Positions 1,700 to 44,814 of a stretch of 64,000 nucleotides of DNA are shown here, one piece after another. Positions within the stretch are counted from its first letter, which is position 1; every line of letters starts with the position of its first letter. The stretch comes from Gammaproteobacteria bacterium. GTDB lineage: Bacteria > Pseudomonadota > Gammaproteobacteria > S012-40. The position numbers and the translations under genes are program-made. The stretch is from positions 10,511-74,510 of the forward strand of contig JAOUJM010000001.1 of assembly GCA_029883265.1 (NCBI GenBank). Direction: 5' to 3'. The notes under the pieces are model-generated. The model ran no database searches and was not told where the DNA came from. It saw nothing but the letters and a program-made list of their open reading frames with translations.

Positions 1700-1707
1700 C
1701 CACTAGT

Positions 1708-2609: not shown

Positions 2610-2880
2610 CTATTTCAGTTTTTATCCTTTTGACACACTCCGCTAAAGCTCTATAGCTTGGGGGTTGAACGCAATAGGCATCAGATACATTTCGTGAAAA
2701 ACCAAGAGCTTTGTCTGATATATCGTCGACATTCCCACTCTTCAGTGCTTCCAAAAGTGCTTCAGCTGTCGCCACGATATTCATCAATTCTTCCCGATCC
2801 TCGGAATTTGAAGTATTTATTGCGTCTCTTCTGTAGAGAGCTAAGGTCGTCTTGAGTAATTCAATAATGTCATTTTGCAT
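2605..2880 (-). CDS. Putative immunity protein for toxin C
   Basis: 91-aa ORF whose ATG overlaps the toxin C stop (TAATG at 2880). Confidence 0.5.
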   Translation of the reverse strand: MQNDIIELLKTTLALYRRDAINTSNSEDREELMNIVATAEALLEALKSGNVDDISDKALGFSRNVSDAYCVQPPSYRALAECVKRIKTEIV

Positions 2881-3320
2881 TAATTTAACTCCTCAATTAT
2901 TGCTCTCGGGCCTTGAGCATTGTAAGTTTGCTGTCCTCCTCCAATTAGGTTCGGCTTTGGCTGCGGCGCTACTGTACCTTGAAACACGGTTGTTCCGGGC
3001 TGATATTTTACAACAGCAGCCTTGGTTACCTGGTTGTTCGGTAGAGCCAAAATCCGTATTCGATCCTCAATTTTCTCAATCCATTGGGGAGTGGACCATC
3101 TACCTCCAAGTTTTGCTCCACCTTTTAACCCATCAAAGTATCGAAATTCTACTAATTCACTGTTGAGTGTTTTTACTCTAAAGGTCTCTAACTCAAAAGC
3201 CTTTATGAGTTGATTTCTTTCTGAGGGTAGTAAATCTTGCCTAGTTTCTCTAAGGATAGATCTAGCCTGTCTGATATTTGCCGCCGCTTCGGATCTGATC
3301 CCTGCACTGTCTGGAACAAC
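2880..3320 (-). CDS. Orphan toxin C-terminal domain C (startless, 146 aa; VVPDSAGIRSEAAANIRQARSILRE...AIIEELN)
   Basis: Not in the ORF track because it has no Met. Hand translation from GTT GTT CCA GAC at 3320 is open to TAA at 2882..2880. The junction codon directly follows the TAG stop (3323..3321) of immunity D. Confidence 0.55.
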   Translation of the reverse strand, partial: VVPDSAGIRSEAAANIRQARSILRETRQDLLPSERNQLIKAFELETFRVKTLNSELVEFRYFDGLKGGAKLGGRWSTPQWIEKIEDRIRILALPNNQVTKAAVVKYQPGTTVFQGTVAPQPKPNLIGGGQQTYNAQGPRAIIEELN

Positions 3321-3542
3321 CTATTTTATTTCTTCTACACGTACCCCGAGCTCCCTTAACCTAGAAAAAACTGCGTCAGCCAAGCTTTCATCAGAAATAG
3401 GCAAATCATACTCTCGGCCGTCCTCGTTCGTAAAACAAAGCATTTCAGAATAAGGAGTAACTTCGATATAAAACCGACCAATCTCAACACCAGTTTCAGC
3501 TATAAATTTATCAGCTAAATCTCTCATATCTTCATTCAGCAT
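3321..3542 (-). CDS. Putative immunity protein for toxin D
   Basis: 73-aa ORF. Its start overlaps the toxin D stop at 3542. Its stop is immediately followed by the module C junction. Confidence 0.5.
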   Translation of the reverse strand: MLNEDMRDLADKFIAETGVEIGRFYIEVTPYSEMLCFTNEDGREYDLPISDESLADAVFSRLRELGVRVEEIK

Positions 3543-4069
3543 TATTTTGCACCTCCTGTACGAGGTGCCTTGCCGAACCCTGGATAATAGATTGTATTGT
3601 CAGCATTGCCTGTACCCCAGAAAATTCTTGTTGGCTGCGGTTTAGCCAAAGGGTTTTGTTGCAACTGCCTAAAATATCTTGCATTAACTAAATCCATATC
3701 TTTTAGAGATGGCCATATTTGTGTAGCAGTTTCATTCGGATGAACATGACCAATCAATCTAGAATCACGCGGAACTGGGCTAGTCCAAGCATTGCCACTG
3801 TATAGCCTCTTAACCAATGTCCCATCGCCTAATCTTTCAGTGGTCAACGCAAACTCGACGTTTCTTCCATCAAGCCTGCCTAACTCATAGACATCGCCAA
3901 ACCGAATCGACCTATCCGTTAACGTTACACCTTGAGTTCCTGGTAGAGCTCCAGTTTGACGTAACTCAGCCATCGATATATGTGAACCCAGGCCCTCAGT
4001 ATGCCTAAAGCCATTAGAGTCTACTTTACCGGCCTGATGTAAAACATCGAAAGCACTGTCTGGAACAAT
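3542..4069 (-). CDS. Orphan toxin C-terminal domain D (begins IVPDSAFDVLHQAGKVDSNGF...)
   Basis: Track ORF 3542..3973 extends in frame to the IVPD junction (GTCTGGAAC at 4058-4066). Confidence 0.55.
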   Translation of the reverse strand: MVPDSAFDVLHQAGKVDSNGFRHTEGLGSHISMAELRQTGALPGTQGVTLTDRSIRFGDVYELGRLDGRNVEFALTTERLGDGTLVKRLYSGNAWTSPVPRDSRLIGHVHPNETATQIWPSLKDMDLVNARYFRQLQQNPLAKPQPTRIFWGTGNADNTIYYPGFGKAPRTGGAK

Positions 4070-4070
4070 A

Positions 4071-4361
4071 CTACTTGGCTTCTATGAAAGCTCTTTCTGC
4101 TTTTGCTATGTCCTCAGCTAACTTCGAATCAAATGGCCAACTATCTGCTATCGCATGTGTAAGGCCTAAGTTCCGCTGACTCTTTTCTGGTAAAGAACCC
4201 GAATTCAAAGTGTCTAACATCTTCTGAAGCTTCTGTTTAAAAGCATCCTTCTGTACTTTTGGTACGTTGGCTAGTTTAGGATCAGGAGAGCTAGATAGCT
4301 CTCGATCCAATGCCTCCATAGCAGATTTGACCAGCTTAGTTGCCTGCTCTATTGAACTCAT
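4071..4361 (-). CDS. Putative immunity protein for toxin E
   Basis: 96-aa ORF directly 3' of toxin E. Its stop TAG (4073..4071) abuts the module D junction. Confidence 0.5.
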   Translation of the reverse strand: MSSIEQATKLVKSAMEALDRELSSSPDPKLANVPKVQKDAFKQKLQKMLDTLNSGSLPEKSQRNLGLTHAIADSWPFDSKLAEDIAKAERAFIEAK

Positions 4362-4799
4362 TTATGGCTCCAATAAGTCGTTTGTATCTAATATATATTT
4401 CTGAATTTGACTGCCTTCAACACCTACTCCCATTGAAGATGCACGCCCTTCAAGAATTTTAGTATTAGGCCTAATTTGGAATTGCTTCATGTAGGTCATC
4501 TGATTCCATTCTGGTTTTAATGCTAGATTTTGTCTTGAAGCAGGGAAAGTTTCGAACAGGTAACGACCTTTCTCCCACGCTTTCACATTATCGTAATACC
4601 TGATACCAAATTCGCTATCTGTTGCTTGTCTCAAGTTGAGAGTCTTAATATCAAAACTCTCTAGAACTTGCTTCCTGATATCTCGTGGCACTCCAGCATT
4701 TTGTAAGAACTGCGATGCTTCCTTAACCCCTGCGTATCTTTGACCAAGTACGCCCTCTAATTCAGCCGTAGAGATGTTGTCGGCTTTGTTTGGAACTAC
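4362..4799 (-). CDS. Orphan toxin C-terminal domain E (begins VVPNKADNISTAELEGVLGQRYAGVKE...)
   Basis: Track ORF 4362..4691 extends in frame to GTA GTT CCA AAC AAA at 4799. The first junction codon shares one nucleotide with the TAG stop of immunity F (TAGTAGTTCCA). Confidence 0.55.
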   Translation of the reverse strand, partial: VVPNKADNISTAELEGVLGQRYAGVKEASQFLQNAGVPRDIRKQVLESFDIKTLNLRQATDSEFGIRYYDNVKAWEKGRYLFETFPASRQNLALKPEWNQMTYMKQFQIRPNTKILEGRASSMGVGVEGSQIQKYILDTNDLLEP

Positions 4800-5191
4800 T
4801 AATTAGGTAACTGCTTTACTAATGCATCGAAGTTCTGCTTAAGTTTTATCGCAATTTCACTGAGCTGTTCCTCGTCGCTCATAGGCGTGTCAGGAACTCC
4901 AGCTAGTAACTCCTCTATCGATAACTGCTCCCCGTCAGATATCAATGAGTTCAAATATGACCACTCGGCATTATCTAATTCTTCATTGCTTGCTTCGATA
5001 GTGCCGATCAAACAATTTACTTCCCCATCCCTTTCGGATTGATAAAAACATAACTTACAGAGTGGGGAAGAATAAAAAACTAGGGATTTATTACCACCAT
5101 CCAAATCTAAAGTTTCGTCTAGTTTAAAACCCTTGGCAGAAAAGAAATCTTCCAAGGCCCTACGCACTTTTCTCTGAAAATCGATAGTCAT
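4799..5191 (-). CDS. Putative immunity protein for toxin F
   Basis: 130-aa ORF. Its start overlaps the toxin F stop (5188..5191). Confidence 0.5.
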   Translation of the reverse strand: MTIDFQRKVRRALEDFFSAKGFKLDETLDLDGGNKSLVFYSSPLCKLCFYQSERDGEVNCLIGTIEASNEELDNAEWSYLNSLISDGEQLSIEELLAGVPDTPMSDEEQLSEIAIKLKQNFDALVKQLPN

Positions 5192-5664
5192 TGTTTGTCA
5201 GCCTTGATCCAAGAATTACCATCTCTCACATAACCATAATTCTTGGCGTTGGTTTCAAGATATTTAATCTCCATCGCCGTGAAGCTTTTTGGTCTATTAG
5301 TTAAAACTTCTCTGATTGTTTCGCCATGGAGATCAATTCGACCAACGCCACGCTCTAATTGACCATGAAGGAATTGTTCATTAACAGACCAAGCTTTTGC
5401 TCTACCTTCTGTCTTGCTTAAACCATTGGTGAGTTTTGAGAAAAAGCTGGAGTCCGTCTCAAACCATACTCCACCATTAGCCTTTGCCTCACCGATATAC
5501 CCACCATTGTCAACCCACTTGCCCAAAACTACACGATTTGAATTCTGATTAACATGGGTGGACATTTCTGCTATTTGTCGAGCATACTGATCCGCATTAG
5601 TGCCCGATGTATTGCGTAATCCATTAATCGCATCATTCAGAGAGAGCTTGTTTGGAACAAATAA
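5188..5664 (-). CDS. Orphan toxin C-terminal domain F (begins LFVPNKLSLNDAINGLRNTSGTNADQYARQIAEMSTHVNQNS...)
   Basis: Track ORF 5188..5565 extends in frame to the FVPNK junction (TTTGGAAC at 5651-5658). A stop lies just upstream. Confidence 0.55.
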   Translation of the reverse strand, partial: LFVPNKLSLNDAINGLRNTSGTNADQYARQIAEMSTHVNQNSNRVVLGKWVDNGGYIGEAKANGGVWFETDSSFFSKLTNGLSKTEGRAKAWSVNEQFLHGQLERGVGRIDLHGETIREVLTNRPKSFTAMEIKYLETNAKNYGYVRDGNSWIKADKQ

Positions 5665-5675
5665 TCAGCTAGTAG

Positions 5676-6059
5676 TTAGCTGTAGTACTTATACAAATCA
5701 GAATCTTCCCACTCTTTCTCATAAACCGCAAGAACCCTGCTTAATGCATCTCGAACTCTTAAATCTGAGCTATTCGACATTTCCTGCAGAACTGATAGCT
5801 TAATTTCGTCCCATTTTAGTTCTCTCATGCAAAACTCAAGAATTTCAATAGGCCATTTTTCTTCTTTTACTATCGTTTTAAAATTCTCGACAAGTTCTTC
5901 ACGACTATTAGAATTGGACTGTACAAACTGGAGTATTTGTAACAAATAGGGCTCAAGTTCATCCGTGCCGTCAGTTTTTTGCCATGCAGACTCTGCGGCT
6001 TGTACTAAGGTCCAGAATTCATCTGCAACTTTCATGATCATTAATCCTTCTTTACCCAT
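5676..6059 (-). CDS. Putative immunity protein for toxin G
   Basis: 127-aa ORF. The internal Met at 6041 would give the typical TGATG stop/start overlap with toxin G, so the true start may be 6041. Confidence 0.5.
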   Translation of the reverse strand: MGKEGLMIMKVADEFWTLVQAAESAWQKTDGTDELEPYLLQILQFVQSNSNSREELVENFKTIVKEEKWPIEILEFCMRELKWDEIKLSVLQEMSNSSDLRVRDALSRVLAVYEKEWEDSDLYKYYS

Positions 6060-6846
6060 TCACCGCCACGAGGAAGTGTTGAATCAAACCTCCAGACTTT
6101 CTCTATATATTTGTTCGTGGTATCAAATCCTAGTGCTTGAAACGCTTTCTCAGTTGCCTTTTGTGCAGATTGCCCATGGGGCTGATAATGACCCGAAGTG
6201 TTGTCGATATATTTCAACTCGCCATTTACAGCTTTGACCTCGCCGGCAGCAATTACAGGACGATTGTTGGCAATATCAATATGACCGCCACCAGGCGCTT
6301 TCCTGGATTGTTTACCAAGCAGCAAAGTGCCATCCTCGAGTACTACATAATTGGCTTTTTGGTTAATCTCAGTAAATCTATTCGGATTTATAAGGTTAGC
6401 CGGACCAACGCTATCTTCAGGAAATTTATTCGTGAACACTGAAGTTTTGTTGTCTGGAACAAATCCGTCTACCTTGCGTAGTTTACCCAACATAGAGGAC
6501 CCAGCCAAGGTTAAAGCAAAATCAACTGGAGATTCTGGGATCAACATGTCGAACAATTGCGCACCTACAAACGCTCCAGGACTTAAATTCTTGAATGCAA
6601 AATGCTCCATTGAGTTTTTAACTTGTGATTTACCACTCCTCATATCGCTGGTAAATTTGACAGAATTTTCATAGATATTTCTAAGTATTGGATCTTCTAT
6701 CAAGTCACTGAGCTTATTAATATCTTGAATATCAGTGTCAACTCGCCATATTTTTGCACCGTTTTCATCAGAGCCAATACTATCTGAAACATCAGCTCTA
6801 ACAGGACCATGTTCATTTTTCGCAAGCTGTAATCCGTCCAGTGATA
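6041..6846 (-). CDS. Orphan module G: ~130-aa pre-junction RHS-tail fragment (…VDFALTLAGSSMLGKLRKVDGF) plus VPDNK junction plus CT domain
   Basis: Track ORF 6041..6868. Its first 7 codons (MRSLGRL) are encoded inside the IS66 left end (6847-6868). The internal junction is GTCTGGAAC at 6452-6460. Confidence 0.5.
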
Positions 6847-6930
6847 GTAAGCGTCCCAAACTCCGCACCTTCCCAGTTCGCTTAAGATCCGTTAGCCTGT
6901 TTCTGTGTAAATTACCGGCAGGAGCAAGCC

Positions 6931-7290
6931 ATGAACGATCTCACTCAATCATCCATCAAAAACATTCGCACGGATAAACGCAGCAAGGGCCCTGAGTATT
7001 GGCAGGCGCATATAGAGGCCATGAAACAAAGTGGTCTATCAAAAACCGCGTACTGTAAACAAAACAATCTTTCGACGGTGACATTTTTTAAATGGGAAAA
7101 GAAACTCGCCAAGGCCTCGGCTTTGTTTGTACCTGCGAAGTTGGAGATGCCGGTGTCTCCAACCTCATCCAACGAGATGATTCGGATTGATCTACCCAAT
7201 GGCTGTGTGATTTCCTTGCCGGTATCGTGCTCACCCGCAGAGGGTTTACGTTGGATTGAGACCTTGATGCGTGTTTCATGCTCAAGCTAG
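6931..7290 (+). CDS. tnpA: IS66-family TnpA (orf1, HTH)
   Basis: 119 aa. It is the first of three overlapping same-strand ORFs after a GTAAGCG-type IR. Its paralogue at 18817 is about 85% identical. Confidence 0.7.
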   Translation: MNDLTQSSIKNIRTDKRSKGPEYWQAHIEAMKQSGLSKTAYCKQNNLSTVTFFKWEKKLAKASALFVPAKLEMPVSPTSSNEMIRIDLPNGCVISLPVSCSPAEGLRWIETLMRVSCSS

Positions 7291-7634
7291 ATCAAGAGAT
7301 TCAGATTTACTTCGCGATTAACCCGATCAACATGCTGAAAAGCTTTGACGGTTTAGCAGCCTTGGTGGTGGATGTGATTCAACAAAATCCCCTATCAGGG
7401 CATTTGTTTGTGTTTCGTAATCGAGCCGCTGATAAAATTAAACTACTGATCTGGGATCGCAATGGCTTTACCATCTACTATAAAAGACTCGAACGCGGTC
7501 GCTTTAAGTTTCCTGAGTTGGATGACTGCACTCATCTTTCGATCACTCGTCAAGAACTGGATTTATTGTTTGATGGTATTGACTTCACTCAACTCAAACG
7601 CCTACCCACACTTCACTATAAATCAGTGATTTGA
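7278..7634 (+). CDS. tnpB: IS66-family TnpB (orf2)
   Basis: 118 aa with the motifs IYFAINPINMLKSFDGL…LFVFRNRAADKIKLLIWDRNGF…YKRLE characteristic of IS66 Orf2. It overlaps the tnpA end. Confidence 0.8.
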   Translation: MLKLDQEIQIYFAINPINMLKSFDGLAALVVDVIQQNPLSGHLFVFRNRAADKIKLLIWDRNGFTIYYKRLERGRFKFPELDDCTHLSITRQELDLLFDGIDFTQLKRLPTLHYKSVI

Positions 7635-7646
7635 TCCGTCTGATAC

Positions 7647-9185
7647 TTGCATTACAATAGTGCCATGCAAGGACGCACGAAAACACATTATTCCTACTCT
7701 GAACTCAAAGCTTTAGTCGATGAACTTCAAAAAGAAGTGCAGCTGCTTCGAGAGAAAAATCGTTTGTTACTGCATCGTCAGTTTGCCGCGAAGTCCGAAC
7801 AGACTACCGATGATCAGTTGTCCTTGTTTGATGCGGATACTTCATCGTCCGAAGTAAATCAAAACAATGAAAAAAACAACAACATCGTCGTACTGGCACA
7901 TCATCGCAAGAAACGACAACGACTGACGTTTTCTGATGACCTACCCAAACGTAGAGTTGAGATTGATCTGGATGAACACGATAAGACCTGCGATTGTTGC
8001 GAAGCACCACTGACGCATATTGGTGAAGACATCACTCGAAAGATTGAATTTATCCCAGCGAAAGTCCAAGTCGTCGAATACGCTCGATTAAAATATGCGT
8101 GTAAATCCTGTGAAGACACCATTAAACGCCCACCCTTACCGAACTTTATCTTACCAAAAAGTTTCGCCACACCAAGTTTACTCGCGCATTTGATTGTGAG
8201 TAAGTTTGGTGATGGCTTACCTTTGTATCGCATTCAACAACAACTGGCCCGTCAAGGTGTGCATTTACCGCGTTCCACCATGAGTACACTGTTACTCAAA
8301 GCCGCTGATTTACTCGATCCGGTTTATAAATTAATGATCAAGCAAGTATTGTCCGGCCCGCGTATTTGGACAGATGACACGATTCTTCCCAAACAAAACG
8401 ATGATCCGAGTCGAAACAAAATCATTCAATCCAGATTATGGGTGTATATTGGTGGACCTCTTAAAGATCCACCCTTGGTCATTTTCGATTACACCAGCAC
8501 TCGATCCTCGAAATGGCCGAAGGACTTATTGTCTGATTACCAAGGCTACAAACATGCCGATGGTTATGGCGGCTATAAATCGTTGCATGATACAGGTAAA
8601 ATTCACTATGTGGCGTGCTGGAGTCATGCGCGGCGAAAGTTTTTTGAGGCCTCATTACTCACCGAGCAAACCGGTAAAGCCAAGACCATGATTAAATACA
8701 TCAAACTGCTTTATAAGATTGAAACCGCTTGTGAAAAATATGGTAATAAAAAACGTAAACGGTTTCGACGAAGATATGCCACACCCATACTCAACACCAT
8801 CAAAGCCTATGCCGATCAACATGCGCCGCATATTCCACCCAAAACCAGTTTGGGTAAAGCGTTTACTTATTTGCTTAATCAATGGCATGGACTGGTTCGT
8901 TATCTCGATGCCGGTCACCTAACCATTGACAATAACCTGGCCGAACGACACATCCGACCCATTGCCGTGGTTCGAAAAAGTTTTCTGTTTGTCGGCTCGG
9001 ATCGCGGTGGTCGTGCGGCTGCGATTTATTATTCGGTGTTGGGGTCGTGTAAAAGTTTGAGGGTGAATCCTTATAAGTATTTGATGGATTTGTTTGAGCG
9101 GTTGCCAAATTTTGAATCAAAATTGGAGTTAAGCAATTTGATGCTAACTCGCTGGACTAAACAAGATGACGAACGAAAAATCTGA
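7647..9185 (+). CDS. tnpC: IS66-family transposase TnpC (orf3)
   Basis: 512 aa. It has an N-terminal leucine-zipper-like coiled coil, a CxxC…CxxC zinc-finger region (KTCDCC…CKSCED) and a DDE-type core. It is about 88% identical to the 19554..21044 copy. Confidence 0.85.
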   Translation: MHYNSAMQGRTKTHYSYSELKALVDELQKEVQLLREKNRLLLHRQFAAKSEQTTDDQLSLFDADTSSSEVNQNNEKNNNIVVLAHHRKKRQRLTFSDDLPKRRVEIDLDEHDKTCDCCEAPLTHIGEDITRKIEFIPAKVQVVEYARLKYACKSCEDTIKRPPLPNFILPKSFATPSLLAHLIVSKFGDGLPLYRIQQQLARQGVHLPRSTMSTLLLKAADLLDPVYKLMIKQVLSGPRIWTDDTILPKQNDDPSRNKIIQSRLWVYIGGPLKDPPLVIFDYTSTRSSKWPKDLLSDYQGYKHADGYGGYKSLHDTGKIHYVACWSHARRKFFEASLLTEQTGKAKTMIKYIKLLYKIETACEKYGNKKRKRFRRRYATPILNTIKAYADQHAPHIPPKTSLGKAFTYLLNQWHGLVRYLDAGHLTIDNNLAERHIRPIAVVRKSFLFVGSDRGGRAAAIYYSVLGSCKSLRVNPYKYLMDLFERLPNFESKLELSNLMLTRWTKQDDERKI

Positions 9186-9193
9186 ACCGGCTT

Positions 9194-9748
9194 TCAATTA
9201 CTAAGTCGAAGCACTTTACCCGAGGATACTTTGAAATGACTAGTAACGATTTTTTGTTCGCCGTTTATGATATAAATATAGTTTGCAATGATAGTTTTAT
9301 TTTCTATTTTTATGTCCCTAAGATTGCTAACTATGGCGTCACCATCTAGCAACCTAAAGCTGCTATCACGAAATTGAAAAATTAGTAAATTATAAAGATT
9401 TCCGCCACTATTGTAATACACGAGCAATTCTGGAGTTGGTTCTTCATCCATGTTCTCTTGTGCAAAATCAACGGAATGACCCTCTAGCATATAAATTATC
9501 TTAGGATAGCCATTTTCAATTGTTAACAAATAAGTTTCGTTTGTGGGTAGGCAATCATCAGCATCATCAATGTAGAATATTTTTAAATCACGGATTTCCA
9601 TGCTCTTCTTTGAATGAATATGAAACTCCATTTTGTTTGAGCCAGACTCAAATTTGTTGCACTTTTCCACAGATGAAAAACAATTAGTAATTCCGGCAAT
9701 ACTTATTAAAATCACGTATAAAGCATGTCTTATATGAGCCATTTTCAC
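9194..9748 (-). CDS. Putative immunity protein for toxin H, with N-terminal signal peptide (periplasmic)
   Basis: 184 aa. Hydrophobic leader MKMAHIRHALYVILISIAGITNCFSS. Its start overlaps the toxin H stop (9745..9748). Its stop lies 8 bp from the tnpC stop, in convergent orientation. Confidence 0.55.
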   Translation of the reverse strand: MKMAHIRHALYVILISIAGITNCFSSVEKCNKFESGSNKMEFHIHSKKSMEIRDLKIFYIDDADDCLPTNETYLLTIENGYPKIIYMLEGHSVDFAQENMDEEPTPELLVYYNSGGNLYNLLIFQFRDSSFRLLDGDAIVSNLRDIKIENKTIIANYIYIINGEQKIVTSHFKVSSGKVLRLSN

Positions 9749-10509
9749 GGTTTACCTTGTGTCTTAAGATAGTTTTCAATAAATTGCACGGTGGTTCCAT
9801 GCCCCTTAGTCGTATTGTAATAGACTTTCCAGTCCTGCGCATAAGAGTGAGCACCAGGTGATTCAATGAAAGATAGTTGACTTCTATATCTCCAATATTG
9901 TAAACCAGCCATCGCTGCAGCATATTTATCATTATTTCGGAGTTCAGAATGCAAATCACCACCATTTGTGAAGCTCATTACTAACTTTGCTATTTTGGGT
10001 TTATATGCAAGGACATTTGCCCATATATCATCATGCGTATTCGGTTCCATTTGAAACAAACCTTTTGCAGGGCCATTACTAAATTGATCCCTGTATTTAA
10101 GCGAACTTTCTTGCGCAGCAGTACCAACTAGAACTTCTTGGAATTCGGTTCGGTATTTTGAAAAAGTTTTGTCTATTTTCCCGAGCTCATCAATGGCAGG
10201 TTTAATCGAGTTAGTAAGCAAAGCATCTGCTTTCTTCTTGAAATGAAGATTATTATTAAACGTATATTTCTCAAGTTCATCCAAGTCAATTTTATACCCT
10301 GATGAATCGAACAAGGACCCCTCCCCAAACGTTCCATCTTGAGGCGCTAAGCTAAGAAGATACTTCGCTACTTCAGTATTGTCACCCCAATCAACGTCGG
10401 GCAACTCGTTTTTATCAAGAACCGCGTTTTGGCCCACACTGGCCAGCATGTTTGAACCAACTGGGTTATTTTTCCTAGGGGCAGAGTTTTGGACGCTTAC
10501 TGGAACTAC
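9745..10509 (-). CDS. Toxin H: lytic transglycosylase (SLT/lysozyme-like) C-terminal domain entered through the IS66 IRR (…LFVVP-VSVQNSAP-RKNNPVGSNMLASVGQ…)
   Basis: Track ORF 9745..10449 extends in frame through 10478-10500, which is translated as VSVQNSAP, to GTA GTT CCA at 10509-10501. The motif LVGTAAQESSLKYRDQFSNGPAKGLFQMEP matches the SLT catalytic signature (E-S … GLMQ-like). Confidence 0.6.
   Translation of the reverse strand, partial: VVPVSVQNSAPRKNNPVGSNMLASVGQNAVLDKNELPDVDWGDNTEVAKYLLSLAPQDGTFGEGSLFDSSGYKIDLDELEKYTFNNNLHFKKKADALLTNSIKPAIDELGKIDKTFSKYRTEFQEVLVGTAAQESSLKYRDQFSNGPAKGLFQMEPNTHDDIWANVLAYKPKIAKLVMSFTNGGDLHSELRNNDKYAAAMAGLQYWRYRSQLSFIESPGAHSYAQDWKVYYNTTKGHGTTVQFIENYLKTQGKP
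10478..10500 (+). repeat. IS66-type right inverted-repeat-like sequence (GGGGCAGAGTTTTGGACGCTTAC), copy 1
   Basis: 20/23 complementary to the IRL at 6847. Identical to 22817-22839. Confidence 0.6.
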
Positions 10510-11168
10510 AAATAGTTAGATTTTTCCAATTCCCACCATTCCAAAAATAAACTCCAGTCATACCAGCTAACAACGGTACCATCGTAAGGCTCGCTTATCC
10601 TAGTACTACAAAATTGCTTACCAGCCAAAGAACTTATTTTTTCTAATGCTAAATCTCTAAGCTCGTAAAAATAATCGCTGTTCATCCCTTTCTCTGCAGC
10701 ATAATCATCTTGCCTAAAATGTATCAAAGGAGATATTTCTCCTTTTTTTGCATAAGTATAATAATGATACAAAGCTATCCTTCTATACCCCAAATCATCT
10801 GAAATAAGATAATCCGCCATTATTTCTCTATAATTAGGATAGTTATCCTTTAACCAAACAAATAACTCTAAAGCTTGATAACAAACATATTTACTTTCAT
10901 GCTTTAAAAGTTTTTCCAATCTACCCACTAAATATTTAAAAAAATCAGTACCGAATGTACCAGGCTTATTCTTTTCTAGAAGCGCGTTTAGAAAAAGAAA
11001 CCCTGTTGATATATCAGCTTGGTCATCAGACGATAAACAATTATGTACCCCCTGTATTACGACTGAGTTTATACCCAGCTTTTGAATATCCGAATGGGTA
11101 AGAGTACTAGTATCCACACCAGTAGCATCTGATAGCAATTTTCTCAGTTCCTCTGATGGGTTCATCAT
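10506..11168 (-). CDS. Putative immunity protein for toxin I
   Basis: 220-aa ORF. Its start overlaps the toxin I stop (11165..11168). Confidence 0.5.
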   Translation of the reverse strand: MMNPSEELRKLLSDATGVDTSTLTHSDIQKLGINSVVIQGVHNCLSSDDQADISTGFLFLNALLEKNKPGTFGTDFFKYLVGRLEKLLKHESKYVCYQALELFVWLKDNYPNYREIMADYLISDDLGYRRIALYHYYTYAKKGEISPLIHFRQDDYAAEKGMNSDYFYELRDLALEKISSLAGKQFCSTRISEPYDGTVVSWYDWSLFLEWWELEKSNYL

Positions 11169-11596
11169 GGTCTAGTTATCCATTTAAGCTCATTGACAAA
11201 TAATGATTCAGTATCAATTTGTTTCACAAAATCAGAATGAAGTTCTTTCGGAATATATGTTTGAGTACCTGATCCACCTTTCACTCCTCCCTGCCAAGCT
11301 TGAAGCCCAGGCTTGATCTCAAACACTCCAAGTTGCTCGGCATTATTTCCCCATGCTTTGATATTAAACAACTCTTCTGCATCCATTGAGTTCAATGGCT
11401 TCATATTACTAAAGAATTCTCCAGTACCGCGTTGACCTTGTCTCTGAGCTTGGAAATACAGACCTGGCTTAACTTCCCCAAACCCTTTAGTTGAAAAAGA
11501 ATCAAGCTTAGATGCACTTATATTTCCAGGTGCAATCAGGCTCGGTGATGGACCTGACTCAGGTATTACAACTGAAGATTTATTGTTTGGAACTAC
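11165..11596 (-). CDS. Orphan toxin C-terminal domain I (begins VVPNNKSSVVIPESGPSPSLIAPGNISASKLDSFSTKGFGEV...)
   Basis: Track ORF 11165..11404 extends in frame to GTA GTT CCA AAC at 11596. Confidence 0.55.
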   Translation of the reverse strand, partial: VVPNNKSSVVIPESGPSPSLIAPGNISASKLDSFSTKGFGEVKPGLYFQAQRQGQRGTGEFFSNMKPLNSMDAEELFNIKAWGNNAEQLGVFEIKPGLQAWQGGVKGGSGTQTYIPKELHSDFVKQIDTESLFVNELKWITRP

Positions 11597-12021
11597 CTTT
11601 TTATAGCAGTTCCTTTAACAATTATATCCTCACCTACTTTCTCAATTGAATCTATAGAGTTAATTACATAGTTTGCAACGTCATTATCTTCATCTAAAGC
11701 AATATCAAGAATATCGAACTTATGGTAAGCATAAAGATATTCAAATAAAGATGCGCCTTCGATATCTATGAATTCAGATAATAACGGATAATCAGTAGCC
11801 CCCGGATATGGGGGCTCAAAATCACCAGCAATCTCGTCATCTTCTCTAAGTTCTTCAACACCATCATTGTACAAAGGTGTGAGCTTTTCTATAAAAACTC
11901 CTTTAGCAAATTTAATTTCGTAGCGGAAAGTCTCAAAGCCATCCCCTTTTCCGAAGCTAAATTGGCTAAACGTTAACGCATTGGAATCAATGTTCTTACC
12001 ATCTACACTATATAAAATCAT
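11593..12021 (-). CDS. Putative immunity protein for toxin J
   Basis: 142-aa ORF immediately 3' of toxin J. Confidence 0.5.
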   Translation of the reverse strand: MILYSVDGKNIDSNALTFSQFSFGKGDGFETFRYEIKFAKGVFIEKLTPLYNDGVEELREDDEIAGDFEPPYPGATDYPLLSEFIDIEGASLFEYLYAYHKFDILDIALDEDNDVANYVINSIDSIEKVGEDIIVKGTAIKR

Positions 12022-12023
12022 CT

Positions 12024-12539
12024 TTAACTTCCCGGAGGTAGAATAATAATTTTGCCATCAGGCGTTATCGTAATTGATCCAGATGGAATATATGGTTGAC
12101 CAGCTTTCAAGTCTCCACCAGCTCTAGTCCCAGATCTTTGGAAAAATTGCTCTGGCGTTGTCATTGTTTCTATAGTTTTTGTACTTTTACCAGGAACAAT
12201 AGTAAGTTCTTCCATTTTTAAGAAATTTGGATTATCAGCTGCGGCTTTATTGACGTTTTTAATTATTCTTTGAGCTTGCTTTTCAGATAAGCTACCGAAA
12301 CCGACATCAATATCACTACCTTTGCCGAAATCGCCTCTTATTCGGCTACCACCAAATACTACTGTTGAATTTCTTTTTAGCCCCTGCTCTAAAATTAACG
12401 TAGCTTGCTCAGTTGTCAAATCAGGTACATGCTTTGATAAAAATGCAGACTGTTCTGCAATGCCTGATGTGGTTAATGTAGTTTGCTCAGGATATGCATT
12501 AAATACAGATTTATCTGTCCAGCGTGTGTTTGGAACTAC
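12024..12539 (-). CDS. Orphan toxin J with nucleotidyltransferase-fold motif (begins VVPNTRWTDKSVFNAYPEQ...)
   Basis: Track ORF 12024..12419 extends to the junction at 12539. VVFGGSRIRGDFGKGSDIDVGF fits the G-S…D-x-D signature of pol-beta-superfamily nucleotidyltransferases. Confidence 0.5.
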   Translation of the reverse strand, partial: VVPNTRWTDKSVFNAYPEQTTLTTSGIAEQSAFLSKHVPDLTTEQATLILEQGLKRNSTVVFGGSRIRGDFGKGSDIDVGFGSLSEKQAQRIIKNVNKAAADNPNFLKMEELTIVPGKSTKTIETMTTPEQFFQRSGTRAGGDLKAGQPYIPSGSITITPDGKIIILPPGS

Positions 12540-12985
12540 TTATCTGTATAATACCATTCTAGAAAATCGAAAAAACTTTTGTATATCGGTTGCAACATCC
12601 TCTTGGAGAGTTTTTCCTCTTCTCCCCAGCTCACATCAAATACTTCATCGCTAACTTTGCTATAAAAATAGCTCCCCTCACCTTCAATAGACGAAATACG
12701 TAAATAATCTTCCATTCCTGGCAGTGAGCTATATTCACCTGATTCAGCATCTTCAATAATTTTTTCCAAAGTGCTAATTTCGCTACCGTTACCCACTACT
12801 GGGATAGCCACCAAAGTATAAAAATCAATAAAGGCAGAGTCAGCATTTCTTATTCCCAACTCTTTCTCAAAATAATTCTTGTCATCTTGCGTAACTATAA
12901 ATTTTCCATCTTGTGCAGAAAAAACGCCGTCATAACACCACTTCAGGTTAGACTTATAGAAGTTTGAGACAATGTCCGGTAACAA
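12536..12985 (-). CDS. Putative immunity protein for toxin K
   Basis: 149-aa ORF. Its TAG stop overlaps the first junction codon of toxin J (GTAG). Confidence 0.5.
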   Translation of the reverse strand: MLPDIVSNFYKSNLKWCYDGVFSAQDGKFIVTQDDKNYFEKELGIRNADSAFIDFYTLVAIPVVGNGSEISTLEKIIEDAESGEYSSLPGMEDYLRISSIEGEGSYFYSKVSDEVFDVSWGEEEKLSKRMLQPIYKSFFDFLEWYYTDK

Positions 12986-12986
12986 T

Positions 12987-13544
12987 TTAACGACCTCCGC
13001 TATTCGTTATCTCGATTAGTCGCTGTTGCCAATAGATTTTTCTGTCAATATCAAAAGCTGATCTATCAACAGGATATGTTGGATGTTGACTTTGAGTTGG
13101 CCCAGATCCCGCGCCATTCATTTCACGCCCTCTATTGGTTTTGTATGGGTGCAATGCCTCACCTCCTTGGCCTGTTTTTGACCGATGCGTTAAATCACTT
13201 AGTTCAAACAGAGGACCGTTCGCATTTTGGCGACTAAGATGCAATTCAATGCGAGACTGTACACCATTCTTCAGAACATAAGGAGCATTTCCCACTTCCA
13301 ATAGCTCCCTATTTGTAGTTGTATAGGTCCTTTTGGTTTTTGGATTGGTAATTTTTACCACTAAATCGGGATCAATTTCTTGTTGAAAGACTTTGTATTT
13401 AATCCCTGTCCCATTTACTGGGGCTACCCACACAGCTTCGGTTTTAAAATAACTAGGATTCTTGGCGTTTTTCGCCCGTAGCGCAACAAAGTCTATCTTA
13501 TTCGGTTCTACTGCTCCCTCAAGTTCATATTTGTTTGGAACTAC
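12987..13544 (-). CDS. Orphan toxin C-terminal domain K (begins VVPNKYELEGAVEPNKIDFVALRAKNAKNPSYFKTEAVWVAPVNG...)
   Basis: Track ORF 12987..13433 extends in frame to the junction at 13544. Confidence 0.55.
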   Translation of the reverse strand, partial: VVPNKYELEGAVEPNKIDFVALRAKNAKNPSYFKTEAVWVAPVNGTGIKYKVFQQEIDPDLVVKITNPKTKRTYTTTNRELLEVGNAPYVLKNGVQSRIELHLSRQNANGPLFELSDLTHRSKTGQGGEALHPYKTNRGREMNGAGSGPTQSQHPTYPVDRSAFDIDRKIYWQQRLIEITNSGGR

Positions 13545-14254
13545 TTATTAAAAAGCGCCTTCCTCAAGACTTTCTGAGCTTCTGCCTCTTCACCTGTAGA
13601 CTCTTTAAAGCATTCATCCTGTACATCAAGTTTAAGTACGCTTCCTAAATCAGAGACACATTCCATAGCAAAATTATCTGCCCCTATATCCCTCAAAAGA
13701 TCCTTACTCATCCACATAGTAGAACCAACACATTCAATATACCCATTCTTCAGATCCCATCGCCCTGGGTTCCTAGAAATATCAATCACTTCACTTTCAA
13801 GAGGAAATGGCAAACCATTGCTCTTCTTCGGTAGATTCGAATGATCTCGTCCTTCGGACTCATAGTAAGCAATATCTTCCATGTTTTGCCAACGGTCATA
13901 TTCTCCATCATATAACCTAGCCTGAACAAAAAACGGGTCATTTACTATTTGAGTAACCCATTTTTCTGCATACTCTTTAGACGCAGCTAGATTCTTTATA
14001 TCTAACCTGGAGAAATCCAGATCTGCTATATATGAAAACTCAATACTCCCCCCATCAAGCTCAATAAAGAAGCTATCGGCCTTATTCTTAAGAAGAGTTT
14101 CCGAAACATCAGTAAAACCTAGTTCTTTGCCAGTGAATCCATCCGCCACTTTTTTATCGGCATATATTTGTTTAAATTCTTCGGTAAGCTTATTCCATAA
14201 CTTATAAGCTTCAGCGTAAGCTTTACCTCTAAGAACAATTTCAATTTGTACCAT
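13541..14254 (-). CDS. Putative immunity protein for toxin L
   Basis: 237-aa ORF. Its start lies 6 nt after the toxin L stop. Confidence 0.5.
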   Translation of the reverse strand: MVQIEIVLRGKAYAEAYKLWNKLTEEFKQIYADKKVADGFTGKELGFTDVSETLLKNKADSFFIELDGGSIEFSYIADLDFSRLDIKNLAASKEYAEKWVTQIVNDPFFVQARLYDGEYDRWQNMEDIAYYESEGRDHSNLPKKSNGLPFPLESEVIDISRNPGRWDLKNGYIECVGSTMWMSKDLLRDIGADNFAMECVSDLGSVLKLDVQDECFKESTGEEAEAQKVLRKALFNK

Positions 14255-14259
14255 GATAA

Positions 14260-14676
14260 TTATTCACCAAACTCTTTAATAATTACTGGAATATTTCGCT
14301 GCTTGCCATACTCAATTAAATGCTTCGCATCATTAAAACCACCTGGCTGAACCCTAATATCCAATATTTTCGTTGCCGGAACGTCGGAAACGGTAATGGT
14401 AGTCTTTTGCAAGTGGTCGATATGAGATCTCATATCATACTCCCAAGATTTACCACCAGTATTAACCGTTTTCAGACTAACAACATTGTTTCCTTGTTGG
14501 AAATCAATCGAAGGGAAGTTATTAGACTTAAATGGTTCGCCAGTTTTTGGGTTAATAGAGTTATCGGAACGAGCCCAATCTTTATAATCTGTTTCTGTAA
14601 GGTGTGACTCAATCTGTCTACCACGAACCTTCGGATCTAGATCCCAAACTTCTCTGCCTAACTTGTTTGGAACAAC
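14260..14676 (-). CDS. Orphan toxin C-terminal domain L (startless, 138 aa; VVPNKLGREVWDLDPKVRGRQIESHLTETDYKDW…MRSHIDHLQK…EFGE)
   Basis: Not in the ORF track because it lacks Met. Hand translation is open from GTT GTT CCA AAC AAG at 14676-14662 to TAA at 14262..14260. The TAA stop of the upstream ORF (14679..14677) is directly adjacent. Confidence 0.55.
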   Translation of the reverse strand, partial: VVPNKLGREVWDLDPKVRGRQIESHLTETDYKDWARSDNSINPKTGEPFKSNNFPSIDFQQGNNVVSLKTVNTGGKSWEYDMRSHIDHLQKTTITVSDVPATKILDIRVQPGGFNDAKHLIEYGKQRNIPVIIKEFGE

Positions 14677-15075
14677 TTATCGCACAGTTACACTCCAAGA
14701 AAAGTCTGGATATCCATCATTTTCTGTGACTCCTAAGACCAGCTTTTTGGCACCTATCACGCACCTAATTTCGCCTAACTCTTCACTTATCTCATTAGGA
14801 TGTAGCAGATCAACGAACTGCCTATAAAATGGCTCGGTATTTTTCGACTTCAAAATTAGAGTTAGCGCGTCTTTTAAACCAGGACTATTACTCTCCACAA
14901 CAGCATTTGGAGTATCAACAGACAGCATAACTGGATTCATGCTTGAAGACAGAACACGTCCTATAAACAACTCACACAAAGATAACGCGCTTTCTGACGC
15001 CTCATTCAATTTGGGCGGAAGAATTATATCGACGGTTTTTTTGTTTTCACCAGTATTCATAGCACCTTCTTCCAA
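14677..15075 (-). CDS. Second small ORF of module M (accessory or immunity protein)
   Basis: 132 aa. It overlaps the 3' end of the zinc-ribbon ORF and ends immediately before the module L junction. Confidence 0.4.
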   Translation of the reverse strand: MEEGAMNTGENKKTVDIILPPKLNEASESALSLCELFIGRVLSSSMNPVMLSVDTPNAVVESNSPGLKDALTLILKSKNTEPFYRQFVDLLHPNEISEELGEIRCVIGAKKLVLGVTENDGYPDFSWSVTVR

Positions 15076-15293
15076 CCCCCTCGAAAAGCTTGGTCAGGAA
15101 ACTCTAATACCCATAATTGTCCACAGTGTTTGCACTTGTATTGAATTTTTATAAATGGCCCTGAATGATCTATTTGTCCGTAACTTTTCAACTCGCCCAT
15201 TTCAACCATCTGGGCAATCCGCTGCCGAAATTCAACGAATTCCTTCTCAGAATTAAACCGTTCTTGGCACAACTCGCAGACTACACAACTCAT
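15057..15293 (-). CDS. Putative immunity protein for toxin M (CxxC…CxxC zinc ribbon)
   Basis: 78 aa with CVVCELC … CKHCGQ. Its start overlaps the toxin M stop. Confidence 0.45.
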   Translation of the reverse strand: MSCVVCELCQERFNSEKEFVEFRQRIAQMVEMGELKSYGQIDHSGPFIKIQYKCKHCGQLWVLEFPDQAFRGGWKKVL

Positions 15294-15793
15294 GGCTTCA
15301 ACCTAAAGATGTGGGTATCCTCTATGGGTACTGGATCAAGCAAGAATTGAGTCCATCCTCCCTGTCCAGCTTCTGGATAGGAATTTGTATAAACCTCCCA
15401 CCCTCGTGTTCCTTCATTTCCAAATGGCCTTGCGACACTAAATCCGCGGACCTTATCTACGGGGATCGCGACACCATAAGTTGGTTCTCCCCACTCAGGC
15501 TTGATTTGAGCACCGCGAGCAATAGCACCACTGGAGTGCGAAAATTCTGTTGTTGAGTAGCCACGAACACTTCCATAACGCAGAGACTTATCAAGACCGT
15601 CTTCAGATAGATATCTAAAAATAAAATCCTGACTTTCTATAGACTCGGAGAGACGGCGTTCGTAGTTCAACTGCGAAAGCTTGTCAATCCTACCTGCACG
15701 CTCTTGCGGGCTTAGGTGACCATACTTTTCTTTCAGTGCTAATGAGCTTGCTCTCGCATCCAGAACAACCTGCGGTGCATTGTCTGGAACAAA
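15290..15793 (-). CDS. Orphan toxin C-terminal domain M (begins FVPDNAPQVVLDARASSLALKEKYGHLSPQE...)
   Basis: Track ORF 15290..15670 extends in frame to TTT GTT CCA GAC at 15793. It is in frame with, and directly after, the TGA stop of immunity N. Confidence 0.55.
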   Translation of the reverse strand, partial: FVPDNAPQVVLDARASSLALKEKYGHLSPQERAGRIDKLSQLNYERRLSESIESQDFIFRYLSEDGLDKSLRYGSVRGYSTTEFSHSSGAIARGAQIKPEWGEPTYGVAIPVDKVRGFSVARPFGNEGTRGWEVYTNSYPEAGQGGWTQFLLDPVPIEDTHIFRLKP

Positions 15794-16264
15794 TCACAAC
15801 AAGCCAAATTTTTCACCCTTACCAATTACTTCAATCGTAACTGAGTAGTCGGACTTTTTTATAGAAACATGTTCTATCAAACCATCAGTTAAATTCTCTA
15901 CACAAAAATCAATTTTTTCCGATTCACTTTTTGGCAAGAAAACCTTATCAGAATACTTTGCCAAATAAGGTAACTTTTTAACTATTGGAATCCTCAATAA
16001 CGGTGTGAGTTCTCTAAATACATCCAGGAATTTGTCGCTATCCAGAGAAGGAGATAAAATTTTCAAAGCTCTTTGAAAACTTCCGATATTTTCGTTTGCC
16101 ACAAAATCATCAAAACTTTTACCGGAAACTATAGCAACCTTTCTAGTGGGTAGGCTTTTACCTTGCCAAATAGTAAGAAACGCTTTAGAAAACTCAATCG
16201 TTCTTAATTTCTCTGGCTCTTCTTTTAAAAAATCTTTTGCCAAATTAATGCTCATATGCGTCAC
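15794..16264 (-). CDS. Putative immunity protein for toxin N
   Basis: 156-aa ORF 3' of toxin N. Confidence 0.5.
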   Translation of the reverse strand: MTHMSINLAKDFLKEEPEKLRTIEFSKAFLTIWQGKSLPTRKVAIVSGKSFDDFVANENIGSFQRALKILSPSLDSDKFLDVFRELTPLLRIPIVKKLPYLAKYSDKVFLPKSESEKIDFCVENLTDGLIEHVSIKKSDYSVTIEVIGKGEKFGLL

Positions 16265-16267
16265 CTT

Positions 16268-16792
16268 CTATTTAAAACCATAGATGGTTTTTATTCTATC
16301 CCATGCATCAAACCGTGTAGCCAGACTACCATTTTCTCCTAATAAAACCCTATTTTCATATATGGTTCCTAGTTCTGGTTTTCCTATGCTGTCTGCAAAC
16401 TTTTGTTCAGCTAGGAATGCTCTCGCCTCAAGATAAGACTTATTAGACATATTTTTCACACCGGAAATATCATCGAAAAAGTGTTGCCCTTCATGTGCAG
16501 TAATTGTAGCAGCTCGTTTTAACCCAGTATTTCCGGTATAAATTAGATCTTGGTTTAACTCAATTTGATTTGTACCAGGAAAATACCGACCATTAAGCCC
16601 ATCTAATTTCGAATAAACAATCTCAACTTTTCCATTTTGAATAGCAGTTGCCAATTTAACTGATCTAGCATCCCCAGTTTCCAATATACGGCTAATCATT
16701 TGAGGAGAAGGCGCTTGATTTCCGTTCGCTAACCTAACTCCATCACCCCCAAACATTACTTTACTTTCTAACTGAAGGTTGTCTGGAACAAC
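16268..16792 (-). CDS. Orphan toxin N with HExxH zinc-metallopeptidase motif (begins VVPDNLQLESKVMFGGDGV...)
   Basis: Track ORF 16268..16756 extends to the junction at 16792. It contains TITAHEGQHFFDD (HExxH). Confidence 0.5.
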   Translation of the reverse strand, partial: VVPDNLQLESKVMFGGDGVRLANGNQAPSPQMISRILETGDARSVKLATAIQNGKVEIVYSKLDGLNGRYFPGTNQIELNQDLIYTGNTGLKRAATITAHEGQHFFDDISGVKNMSNKSYLEARAFLAEQKFADSIGKPELGTIYENRVLLGENGSLATRFDAWDRIKTIYGFK

Positions 16793-16814
16793 CTAATCCC
16801 AAACATCAGTCAAG

Positions 16815-17096
16815 CTAACAAACAGACTCTAGATCCTTGATTAAAACCATAACCTGATCCTGATTACATTCAACAAAGAAACTGTCGATAGTAGAAGTTG
16901 TTTGCAAAGTAATAGATTGCTTAGCTTTAAGCTTTTCTGCTAGTTCTTTTGTTACATCTTCACGATTAGAATTAGTTATATGTACCGAACACACATCCTT
17001 ACCATAAACAACCATAGCTTCGTAGGAATCTTTTAAAGACCACCATTCTCGACGATCTAAAACTCCAGCTGCCTGTTCTCTTATTAAATTAGCCAT
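16815..17096 (-). CDS. Putative immunity protein for toxin O
   Basis: 93-aa ORF. Its start overlaps the toxin O stop (17096). Confidence 0.5.
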   Translation of the reverse strand: MANLIREQAAGVLDRREWWSLKDSYEAMVVYGKDVCSVHITNSNREDVTKELAEKLKAKQSITLQTTSTIDSFFVECNQDQVMVLIKDLESVC

Positions 17097-17563: not shown

Positions 17564-17853
17564 ATACTAAATCCGCTTTTCCAATCACTTTTAGTAGTAG
17601 GATCCGACCTCATTTCTTCTAAGAAGAACTCACACGCTGAGCTTTCATCCTCAAAACACTCTTTGCCAGTCTGCAATCCTCTCTCACTATAATAAACACA
17701 CCACCGGCCATTTTCACAACGCAAGCACAACGCCTCGTCCTTTTGTTCCTCCTCCAATGAGTAAGAGCTAGGATTAAATTTCTCCTCACTCAACTTTCTT
17801 TGAAGATCATCTTTATTCATGCAATATCCCTCATCATTTTGTAACGCGCTCAA
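17560..17853 (-). CDS. Putative immunity protein for toxin P
   Basis: 97-aa Cys-rich ORF that overlaps the toxin P 3' end. Confidence 0.45.
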   Translation of the reverse strand: MSALQNDEGYCMNKDDLQRKLSEEKFNPSSYSLEEEQKDEALCLRCENGRWCVYYSERGLQTGKECFEDESSACEFFLEEMRSDPTTKSDWKSGFSM

Positions 17854-18755: not shown

Positions 18756-18816
18756 TTCCCAGTCAGTTTAAGATCCGTTAGCCTGCTGCTGTGTAAATTA
18801 CCAACAGGAGCAGGCA

Positions 18817-44809: not shown

Positions 44810-44814
44810 AAACC

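Follow-up and report, generated by a model that had tools for sequence, protein, structure and literature searches.

A predicted peptidoglycan glycosidase toxin tip with an exported immunity protein, carried by an IS66-family element in an orphan Rhs array

The window analyzed here, a stretch of 64,000 nucleotides from contig JAOUJM010000001.1 of a gammaproteobacterial assembly (GCA_029883265.1), contains on its minus strand two overlapping genes, which encode toxin H (reading frame 9745–10500) and its partner, immunity H (9194–9748). The initial annotation of this pair described toxin H as a cargo toxin with lytic transglycosylase activity and gave no physical meaning for the word cargo; the pair is found inside a transposon of the IS66 family of insertion sequences (IS), IS-A (6847–10500, 3.65 kb). 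IS-A is situated among approximately 16 orphan Rhs cassettes (sites within 1108–18247), downstream of a gene for a 6384-residue Rhs protein (21847–41001, minus strand). The last ~330 residues of that protein are the cargo of a sister element, IS-B (18733–22839, plus strand, 4.1 kb).

The reading frame of toxin H is open from the right inverted repeat (IRR) of IS-A, the codons of which read VSVQNSAP, to the stop codon at 9745–9747, with the first ATG located at 10449. Counted from this ATG, the open reading frame (ORF; 9745–10449, minus strand) encodes 234 amino acids, with LVGTAAQESSLKYRDQFSNGPAKGLFQMEP corresponding to residues 107–136. Upstream of ATG 10449 the frame remains open to 10515 without a start codon, and its translation is LFVVP-VSVQNSAPRKNNPVGSN-M..., in which VVP is the first half of the junction motif that opens the orphan cassettes. 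Because the upstream frame reads through this motif, position 10509, which the initial annotation gave as the end of the feature, is the true 5′ edge of the cassette. No convincing ribosome-binding site was seen at the start of toxin H, and a promoter and terminator scan of the region 9000–11300 yielded fewer promoter-like sites than in shuffled sequences and no usable signal. The first 74 residues (10228–10449, minus strand) form an N-terminal linker, modeled with a low predicted local distance difference test score (pLDDT) at residues 1–55 and then as a long helix leading into the domain that follows (residues 75–234; 9748–10227, minus strand). Among 90 homologs of toxin H, just one (P0001, 99% identical) aligns with this linker, with the truncated toxin of contig L018 being placed there partially by MAFFT. 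The NCBI entry for toxin H, MDH5228457.1, is a 'hypothetical protein' from a metagenome-assembled genome of Gammaproteobacteria, and neither toxin H nor immunity H has a Pfam model.

Immunity H (184 residues) starts with GTG, or with ATG two codons downstream, within a 4-nt overlap with the stop codon of toxin H, an arrangement of translationally coupled genes. Its N terminus, MKMAHIRHALYVILISIAGITNCFSS, comprises a signal-peptide-like leader (approximately residues 1–26; 9671–9748, minus strand) in which a basic n-region is followed by a 14-residue hydrophobic core (residues 9–22, Kyte–Doolittle 11-residue mean up to 2.65) and a c-region with the sequence TNCFSS. The leader attributed to the partner ORF in the initial annotation, where it was called cleavable, is thus borne out as a signal-like segment. 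A reading of this leader as that of a lipoprotein was rejected, since ITNC is not a canonical lipobox. A strong leader (11-residue mean above 2) is present in two of the ten presumed immunity ORFs of the array that were tested, namely immunity H and the ankyrin-repeat ORF of IS-B (21095–21823), with ORF 1708–2172 displaying a weaker hydrophobic peak of 1.73. A word-indexed homolog search with immunity H returned the protein itself only, as if it were an ORFan, and a profile passed through the same word index returned four sequences; an exhaustive HMMER search found 43 remote homologs of ~180–190 residues. An N-terminal hydrophobic leader is shared by 32 of the 41 aligned members of this family. 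The model of immunity H (pLDDT 92.3) is all-beta.

The gene neighborhood of the immunity homologs provides the strongest evidence for the function of the pair. In five of the six loci examined (L011, L012, L018, L019, and L020), an ORF ending in a toxin-H-like domain, with the E-S and Q-x-E residues kept, terminates 1–40 nt ahead of the immunity homolog. A canonical Rhs core end (...YDxxLGRF...NPL(A/S)xxDPxG[FY]), followed by a linker, the domain, and the immunity homolog, is visible in four of them (L011, L012, L019, and L020), and in L018 the domain and the immunity homolog are present with the upstream part lost to the contig end. BLASTP E-values for the toxin-H-like Rhs tips are 2e-28 and 2e-21. 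Because the pairing recurs in five unrelated contigs, the domain is taken to serve as an Rhs toxin tip and the partner to be its immunity protein. The sixth locus, in the complete genome of Shewanella cyperi (CP071501.1, 8001–8555), contains an immunity homolog (P0131) with no adjacent toxin, which may be an orphan immunity gene.

The C-terminal domain of toxin H has a sole significant library match, to the phage family phrog_3108 of 'unknown function' (E=1e-27, residues 75–230 aligned to positions 4–155 of the 160-position profile). Nearly all of the 90 homologs are free-standing proteins of ~160 residues without Pfam annotation. Their alignment contains four conserved blocks, GTAAQES, GGGPAxGLFQMEPxTHDDIW, YAAAM, and YWKxxYNTxxGxG, which in toxin H itself appear as GTAAQES, GPAKGLFQMEPNTHDDIW, YAAAM, and WKVYYNT..G. 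Residues Glu114, Ser115, Gln133, and Glu135 are invariant or nearly so across toxins and phage enzymes, and Asp141 is nearly invariant. The E-S and GLMQ-like motifs that had been pointed out in the peptide LVGTAAQESSLKYRDQFSNGPAKGLFQMEP are therefore genuine, both E-S and G-L-F-Q being invariant or nearly invariant in an alignment of 54 homologs. A profile limited to the domain and compared with the sequences in the Protein Data Bank (PDB) placed lytic transglycosylase gp144 of phage phiKZ on top (E=0.03), with the E-S pair aligned to Glu115-Ser116 of gp144, of which Glu115 is the catalytic residue. Conservation together with this alignment points to Glu114 (codon GAA, 10108–10110, minus strand) as the predicted catalytic acid. 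A full-length profile produced matches to troponin I in the same database, which were spurious, being driven by the N-terminal linker, and disappeared after trimming to the domain.

The AlphaFold model of toxin H has a mean pLDDT of 85.6, with per-block values of 85–99 for residues 71–234, and its lysozyme-like fold can be superimposed on solved lytic transglycosylases. Both lytic transglycosylases and muramidases are among its top structural matches, with comparison values of 10.6 and 10.4 for the GH23-like muramidases 8b2e and 8b2h, 10.4 for MltE, 10.1 for Cj0843, 9.7 for Slt70, 9.5 for phiKZ gp144, 8.2 for Tse3, and 8.0 for Tge2, the last two being type VI secretion system (T6SS) effectors. 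Foldseek returned the same families with weak E-values. Motifs II and III of family-1 lytic transglycosylases are G-L-M-Q and A-Y-N-x-G, respectively; in toxin H the segment G130-L-F-Q133 is conserved, and Y211-N212-T-T-K-G216 resembles motif III with a different spacing. The E-S pair, GLxQ, and the C-terminal YN..G of toxin H resemble motifs of the family-1 and GH23 enzymes (E. coli MltE and Slt70, Campylobacter Cj0843, and phiKZ gp144) and occur in the same order. However, identity in the structural alignments is ~13–16%, neither the query nor its relatives match SLT at threshold, and toxin H also contains a QMEPxTHDD block, likewise invariant, in which there is a second Glu.

Several sequence searches weigh against the assignment of an enzymatic function. 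Toxin H has no match to the Pfam SLT model (PF01464) at E≤0.1, and the isolated domain has none at E≤10; no other lysozyme-family model in Pfam is matched with significance, and phmmer searches of the PDB sequences gave no meaningful match to any solved structure. The assignment consequently rests on the predicted structure and on profile matches below threshold. No match was found in NCBIfam either. Weak Pfam matches are present among 54 relatives, to Phage_lysozyme2 in 25 and to SLT in 12, all of them below the curated thresholds; the best SLT E-value is 0.0019, and gp33 of phage RIO-1 scores 12 bits against SLT, the gathering score of which is 21.3 bits. The initial annotation had placed toxin H in the SLT family and named two outcomes that would speak against it, a missing SLT hit and a catalytic Glu absent from the alignment. 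The first is what was found, with no match for toxin H and no family member reaching the gathering score, and the family membership has to be given up. The second is not, as Glu114 is present, invariant, and aligned with Glu115 of gp144. What survives of the lytic transglycosylase claim is therefore the peptidoglycan glycosidase reading, the lysozyme-like fold, and the catalytic Glu. By its sequence, toxin H is a member of a separate family of the lysozyme superfamily (GH23/SLT-like) that has no Pfam model and falls outside PF01464, and the model supports a lysozyme-like fold with a predicted catalytic Glu.

The nature of the cleavage reaction is the point at which the closest competing explanation enters. 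Toxin H might be a hydrolytic muramidase, similar to goose-type or GH23-like lysozymes, rather than a lytic transglycosylase, with Glu135 or Asp141 positioning the water molecule; its products would be reducing MurNAc ends and not 1,6-anhydro-MurNAc. Glu135 is invariant and Asp141 nearly so, and they are located 21 and 27 residues past Glu114; a comparable distance separates secondary acidic residues in g-type lysozyme and in the GH23 chitinase of Ralstonia, whereas the motifs of family-1 lytic transglycosylases have no such Glu. In turn, the three motifs that resemble those of family-1 lytic transglycosylases (E-S, G-L-F-Q, and Y-N-T-x-x-G) occur in order, and the sole PDB match at the sequence level is to a lytic transglycosylase, gp144. 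We consider a muramidase a serious candidate that falls somewhat short of even odds. The toxin tip, the exported immunity protein, and the IS66 carrier would be unaltered by it, and the reading of toxin H as a glycosidase that attacks peptidoglycan and is paired with an exported immunity protein would hold in either case. The idea that the effector acts on peptidoglycan in the target periplasm and is neutralized there, as initially proposed, likewise gains predictive support from the catalytic Glu, the recurrent pairing, and the leaders.

The pair is enclosed by the genes and terminal repeats of an IS66 element. Members of this family (ISfinder) carry tnpA-tnpB-tnpC, terminal repeats starting with GTAAGCG, and 8-bp target duplications. 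The backbone of IS-A (6847–9185, plus strand) comprises the left inverted repeat (IRL, 6847–6870), tnpA (6931–7290), tnpB (7278–7634), and tnpC (7647–9185), and its IRR, GTAAGCGTCCAAAACTCTGCCCCT (10477–10500, minus strand), encodes VSVQNSAP in the frame of toxin H. IS-B begins with its IRL (18733–18756), continues with tnpABC and a cargo on the minus strand, and ends with its IRR (22816–22839). The 24-nt IRR of IS-A recurs at 22839–22816 with one mismatch and in inverted orientation at 6847–6870 and 18733–18756 with three mismatches; IRL and IRR are identical at 21 of 24 positions in IS-A and 20 of 24 in IS-B, and four matches were reached in none of 100 shuffles. Pfam recognizes TnpB_IS66 (9e-34 and 3e-33) and DDE_Tnp_IS66 (2e-84 and 5e-85) in both elements, as well as zf-IS66 and LZ_Tnp_IS66. 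The two backbones are 86% identical up to ~9140, with the homology ending inside the 3′ end of tnpC, and include a perfectly identical 188-bp tract in tnpC (approximately 8034–8221 and 19920–20110), which suggests gene conversion between IS-A and IS-B.

Both elements share a common layout, in which tnpC is followed by a convergent immunity gene, the toxin, and the right repeat, with different cargos. Both toxin frames begin exactly at the right repeat (VSVQNSAP[GR]K), and no alternative right repeat was found between tnpC and the IRR in either copy (best 13 of 24 positions). The cargo of IS-B consists of an ORF with ankyrin repeats and a leader that is hydrophobic (21095–21823, minus strand) and of a lipase-like toxin tip with a GHSLGG motif (21847–22839, minus strand), fused in frame to the giant Rhs protein. 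The cargos of both elements are predicted to be envelope-acting toxins with leader-bearing partners. Compared with the family as described above, IS-A and IS-B conform in their TnpB_IS66 and DDE_Tnp_IS66 proteins, in 24-bp repeats starting with GTAAGCG, and, for IS-B, in the 8-bp duplication. They depart from it in their length (3.65 and 4.1 kb instead of ~2.5 kb), in the convergent toxin–immunity pair placed between tnpC and the right repeat, and in a right repeat that is an open frame continuous with the toxin, so that insertion can give an in-frame protein fusion.

The history of IS-B can be read from its flanks, which carry a perfect 8-bp duplication, CTGGCCAT, at 18725–18732 and 22840–22847. 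When IS-B and one of the two duplication copies are excised in silico, an uninterrupted ORF of 6350 residues is recovered, which ends in an RVPNK motif and a TNT domain. This is direct evidence that IS-B transposed as one unit with its cargo, fusing its tip to the giant Rhs protein and displacing the original tip, which consists of a linker, the RVPNK motif, and a TNT NADase-like domain (17837–18732, minus strand). At the right end of IS-A, the repeat abuts GTAGTTCCA (10501–10509, minus strand), which encodes VVP in the frame of toxin H, the junction motif having been cut by the end of the element. The left end abuts what looks like another Rhs tip displaced through insertion of an IS66 element (6041–6846). 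This tip belongs to a 275-residue ORF on the minus strand (6041–6868), which starts inside the IRL of IS-A and is made up further on of a linker, a GFVPDNK motif, and an unassigned toxin domain; its flank and that at the opposite end of IS-A do not match.

Taken together, we propose, with a probability of roughly 0.78, that toxin H is a detachable Rhs toxin tip, acting as a peptidoglycan glycosidase, with a cognate exported immunity protein, and borne by an IS66 element. Its last 160 residues would act in the target periplasm by cutting the glycan chains of peptidoglycan, with Glu114 as the predicted general acid, an activity and a bond specificity that we infer. Immunity H would be exported to the periplasm of the producer by its putative Sec-type leader, where it presumably blocks the enzyme, neutralization by direct binding being assumed. 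The two proteins would at present be detached from a delivery protein, as a cargo placed after tnpC and ahead of the right repeat of IS-A. With no start codon upstream of the repeat and no convincing ribosome-binding site or promoter, toxin H is probably silent at its present site. The tip would become active once the element, presumed to be still mobile, lands in frame within the 3′ portion of an Rhs gene, which is what IS-B did. A broader proposal, which we favor by a narrower measure, is that a lineage of IS66 carries promoter-less cassettes of toxin tips and immunity genes and that its coding right repeat (VSVQNSAP) permits replacement of a tip by in-frame fusion, supplied with the matching immunity; toxin H would be one such cargo, parked in the orphan array, and IS-B would be an element caught in the act.

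A further group of results speaks against parts of these proposals. The flanks of IS-A differ (CAGTGATA and TGGAACTA) and form no target-site duplication, and its position is for this reason ascribed to a later rearrangement, such as recombination between IS copies, and not to a simple insertion. Exact and degenerate scans for the terminal repeat in 185,579 species-representative genomes returned no matches, and a metagenome scan gave just two uninformative ends, one adjacent to a CRISPR-Cas-like locus and one in a decayed IS. Such scans gave no other informative copies and therefore lend no support to a general occurrence of cargo-carrying IS66 elements. No T6SS, PAAR, or VgrG genes are present in the window, and a fold search with the model of immunity H found just generic blades of beta-propellers, which are not diagnostic. 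Plasmid sequences searched by blastn with the IS backbone yielded no match, the hits to an exact look-up of TnpB were confined to this same locus in other samples, and no precedent was found in the searchable literature on IS66 with Rhs, toxins, passenger genes, or T6SS effectors. The first of the two metagenome ends is the same IS66 terminal repeat at 77–99 of contig Ga0224506_10003679, at the contig end beside a locus that resembles CRISPR-Cas in its ORF sizes and a repeat-like translated array; this contig is probably from the same or a related organism.

The missing duplication of IS-A and the failure to recover further cargo-carrying copies from public genomes could also be accommodated if the pair were an ordinary orphan Rhs cassette, flanked by chance by a truncated IS66 (6847–9185) and an unrelated solo right repeat (10477–10500); the 5′ flank, which is the normal orphan junction motif VVP, fits such an arrangement as well. 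Against chance flanking, IS-B has the same layout and moved as a unit, as its 8-bp duplication and the ORF restored upon excision demonstrate. In addition, both toxins start exactly at the repeat, neither copy has any other right repeat past tnpC, and in each of them the backbone homology stops within the 3′ end of tnpC. We therefore regard an incidental IS66 as unlikely and retain IS-A as the carrier of toxin H and its immunity protein.

The relatives of the toxin domain connect it with phage lysis. Homologs were found by tblastn in 141 phage genomes, mostly of Vibrio and Pseudoalteromonas phages. In a lambda-like Vibrio phage, the homolog is flanked by a membrane protein and by Rz/Rz1-like ORFs and immediately precedes the terminase, whereas in podophages of Pantoea and Edwardsiella it is located beside holin and spanin genes and bears the annotation endolysin or lytic murein transglycosylase. 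A remote SLT similarity of the homolog in phage RIO-1 had been remarked on by that phage's annotators, and a chromosomal relative (L015) adjoins a Peptidase_M23 gene. From this gene context, we infer that members of the family are cell-wall glycosidases, typically phage endolysins. The phrog_3108 endolysins, including gp33 of Pseudoalteromonas phage RIO-1 ('putative endolysin') and the endolysin of Pantoea phage Nufs112, are direct homologs of toxin H with 26–36% identity and the same invariant residues. These phage proteins are free-standing, have ~150–185 residues, and are found in holin/spanin lysis cassettes, whereas toxin H has an N-terminal linker, an exported immunity partner, and a place in an Rhs array, with no holin. 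A metagenomic homolog of 334 residues (P0010) has a ~160-residue C-terminal extension with a weak match to Peptidase_M15_3 (Pfam E=0.15, below threshold). It may be a two-domain cell-wall lysin, fitting a peptidoglycan substrate for the family.

With most homologs being free-standing phage proteins of ~160 residues in lysis cassettes, and some being chromosomal and placed beside other cell-wall enzymes, toxin H could be imagined as an endolysin left over from a prophage, or as a cell-wall enzyme with a housekeeping role, in place of an interbacterial toxin, and followed by an unrelated exported protein, but this is very improbable, as no holin, spanin, or other phage genes are near toxin H, its gene is within a toxin–immunity array, it has a 74-residue N-terminal extension and a frame open into the junction motif, and five independent contigs, four of them with an Rhs core end, pair an ORF ending in the domain with a homolog of the partner.

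The presumed delivery vehicle of the toxin tips is the Rhs/YD-repeat protein with LysM domains encoded at 21847–41001, in which RHS_repeat is matched with E=2.6e-75 and 1.9e-39 and no signal peptide was found. Each orphan cassette downstream of this gene opens with the DNA motif GT(A/T)GTTCCA(A/G)ACAA, which encodes [VF]VP[ND]K; in several cassettes the motif overlaps the stop codon of the immunity gene before it or starts a few nucleotides away. The original TNT tip contains this motif as well, ~170 residues past the point at which IS-B inserted. The [VF]VP[ND]K motif is a family-specific equivalent of the VENN or DPxGL junctions. The toxins recognized in the array include TNT, an LHH nuclease, and a nucleotidyltransferase.

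Rhs orphan arrays in E. coli, Salmonella, and Dickeya have in common with this one a full-length Rhs gene followed by promoter-less toxin fragments with an immunity gene, joined at a short junction. The array described here differs from them in a junction that lies ~170 residues past the repeats instead of at the PxxxxDPxGL core end, in the size of its Rhs protein and the presence of LysM domains, and in two tips that are IS66-borne and not exchanged by homologous recombination. Among effectors with known structures, the T6SS pairs Tge2–Tgi2 of P. protegens (4kt3) and Tse3–Tsi3 of P. aeruginosa (4luq) likewise combine a peptidoglycan toxin of the lysozyme fold with an immunity protein that resides in the periplasm and whose gene comes directly after that of the toxin, a logic of T6SS peptidoglycan effectors and periplasmic immunity that Russell in 2011 and Whitney in 2013 are said to have described. 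Toxin H differs from Tge and Tse3 in having no detectable sequence relationship with them, a different immunity family, and no T6SS genes in the window; it is a swappable C-terminal tip of an Rhs protein, whereas Tge2 and Tse3 are free cargo effectors of Hcp/VgrG. Immunity H was also set beside the type IV secretion system immunity protein X-Tfi XAC2610 of Xanthomonas (4qtq) and the periplasmic lysozyme inhibitor PliI (3od9).

Effectors that cleave peptidoglycan and are countered by periplasmic immunity proteins form a familiar class, to which toxin H would add a family that has not been annotated, linking widespread phage endolysins to Rhs toxins. What is unusual, and more consequential than the toxin, is its IS66 carrier, in which a terminal repeat is itself coding. 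If the proposed read-through from IS66 is true, toxin repertoires could be rewired by transposition and spread together with the antidote between unrelated delivery proteins and genomes. Replacement of tips in this manner would be a transposition-based route to the diversification of polymorphic toxins, distinct from the homologous recombination model of orphan cassettes, and would provide a concrete mechanism for the rapid turnover of their tips and a new role for insertion sequences that carry passengers.

Some other features of the window lie outside the pair and its carrier. The cassettes that start at 1108–1140 and 1699–1731 on the minus strand share their first residues, VVP[DN]KTLNHQASSG, which suggests a recent partial cassette duplication near the start of the window. 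An ORF at 1–738 (minus strand) runs off the window start and is probably an IS110-family transposase, as judged by comparison with the annotation of locus L013. Directly upstream of the giant Rhs gene and co-directional with it is a complete-looking flagellar-type export cluster (48206–63964, minus strand) that includes FlgG, FlgA, FlgH, FlgI, FlgB/C, FliE, FliF, FliH, FliI, FlgD, FlgE, FliN, FliO, and FliP, as well as a sigma factor and TPR proteins. Between this cluster and the Rhs gene there are further ORFs (42370–46089), one of them with DUF6973.

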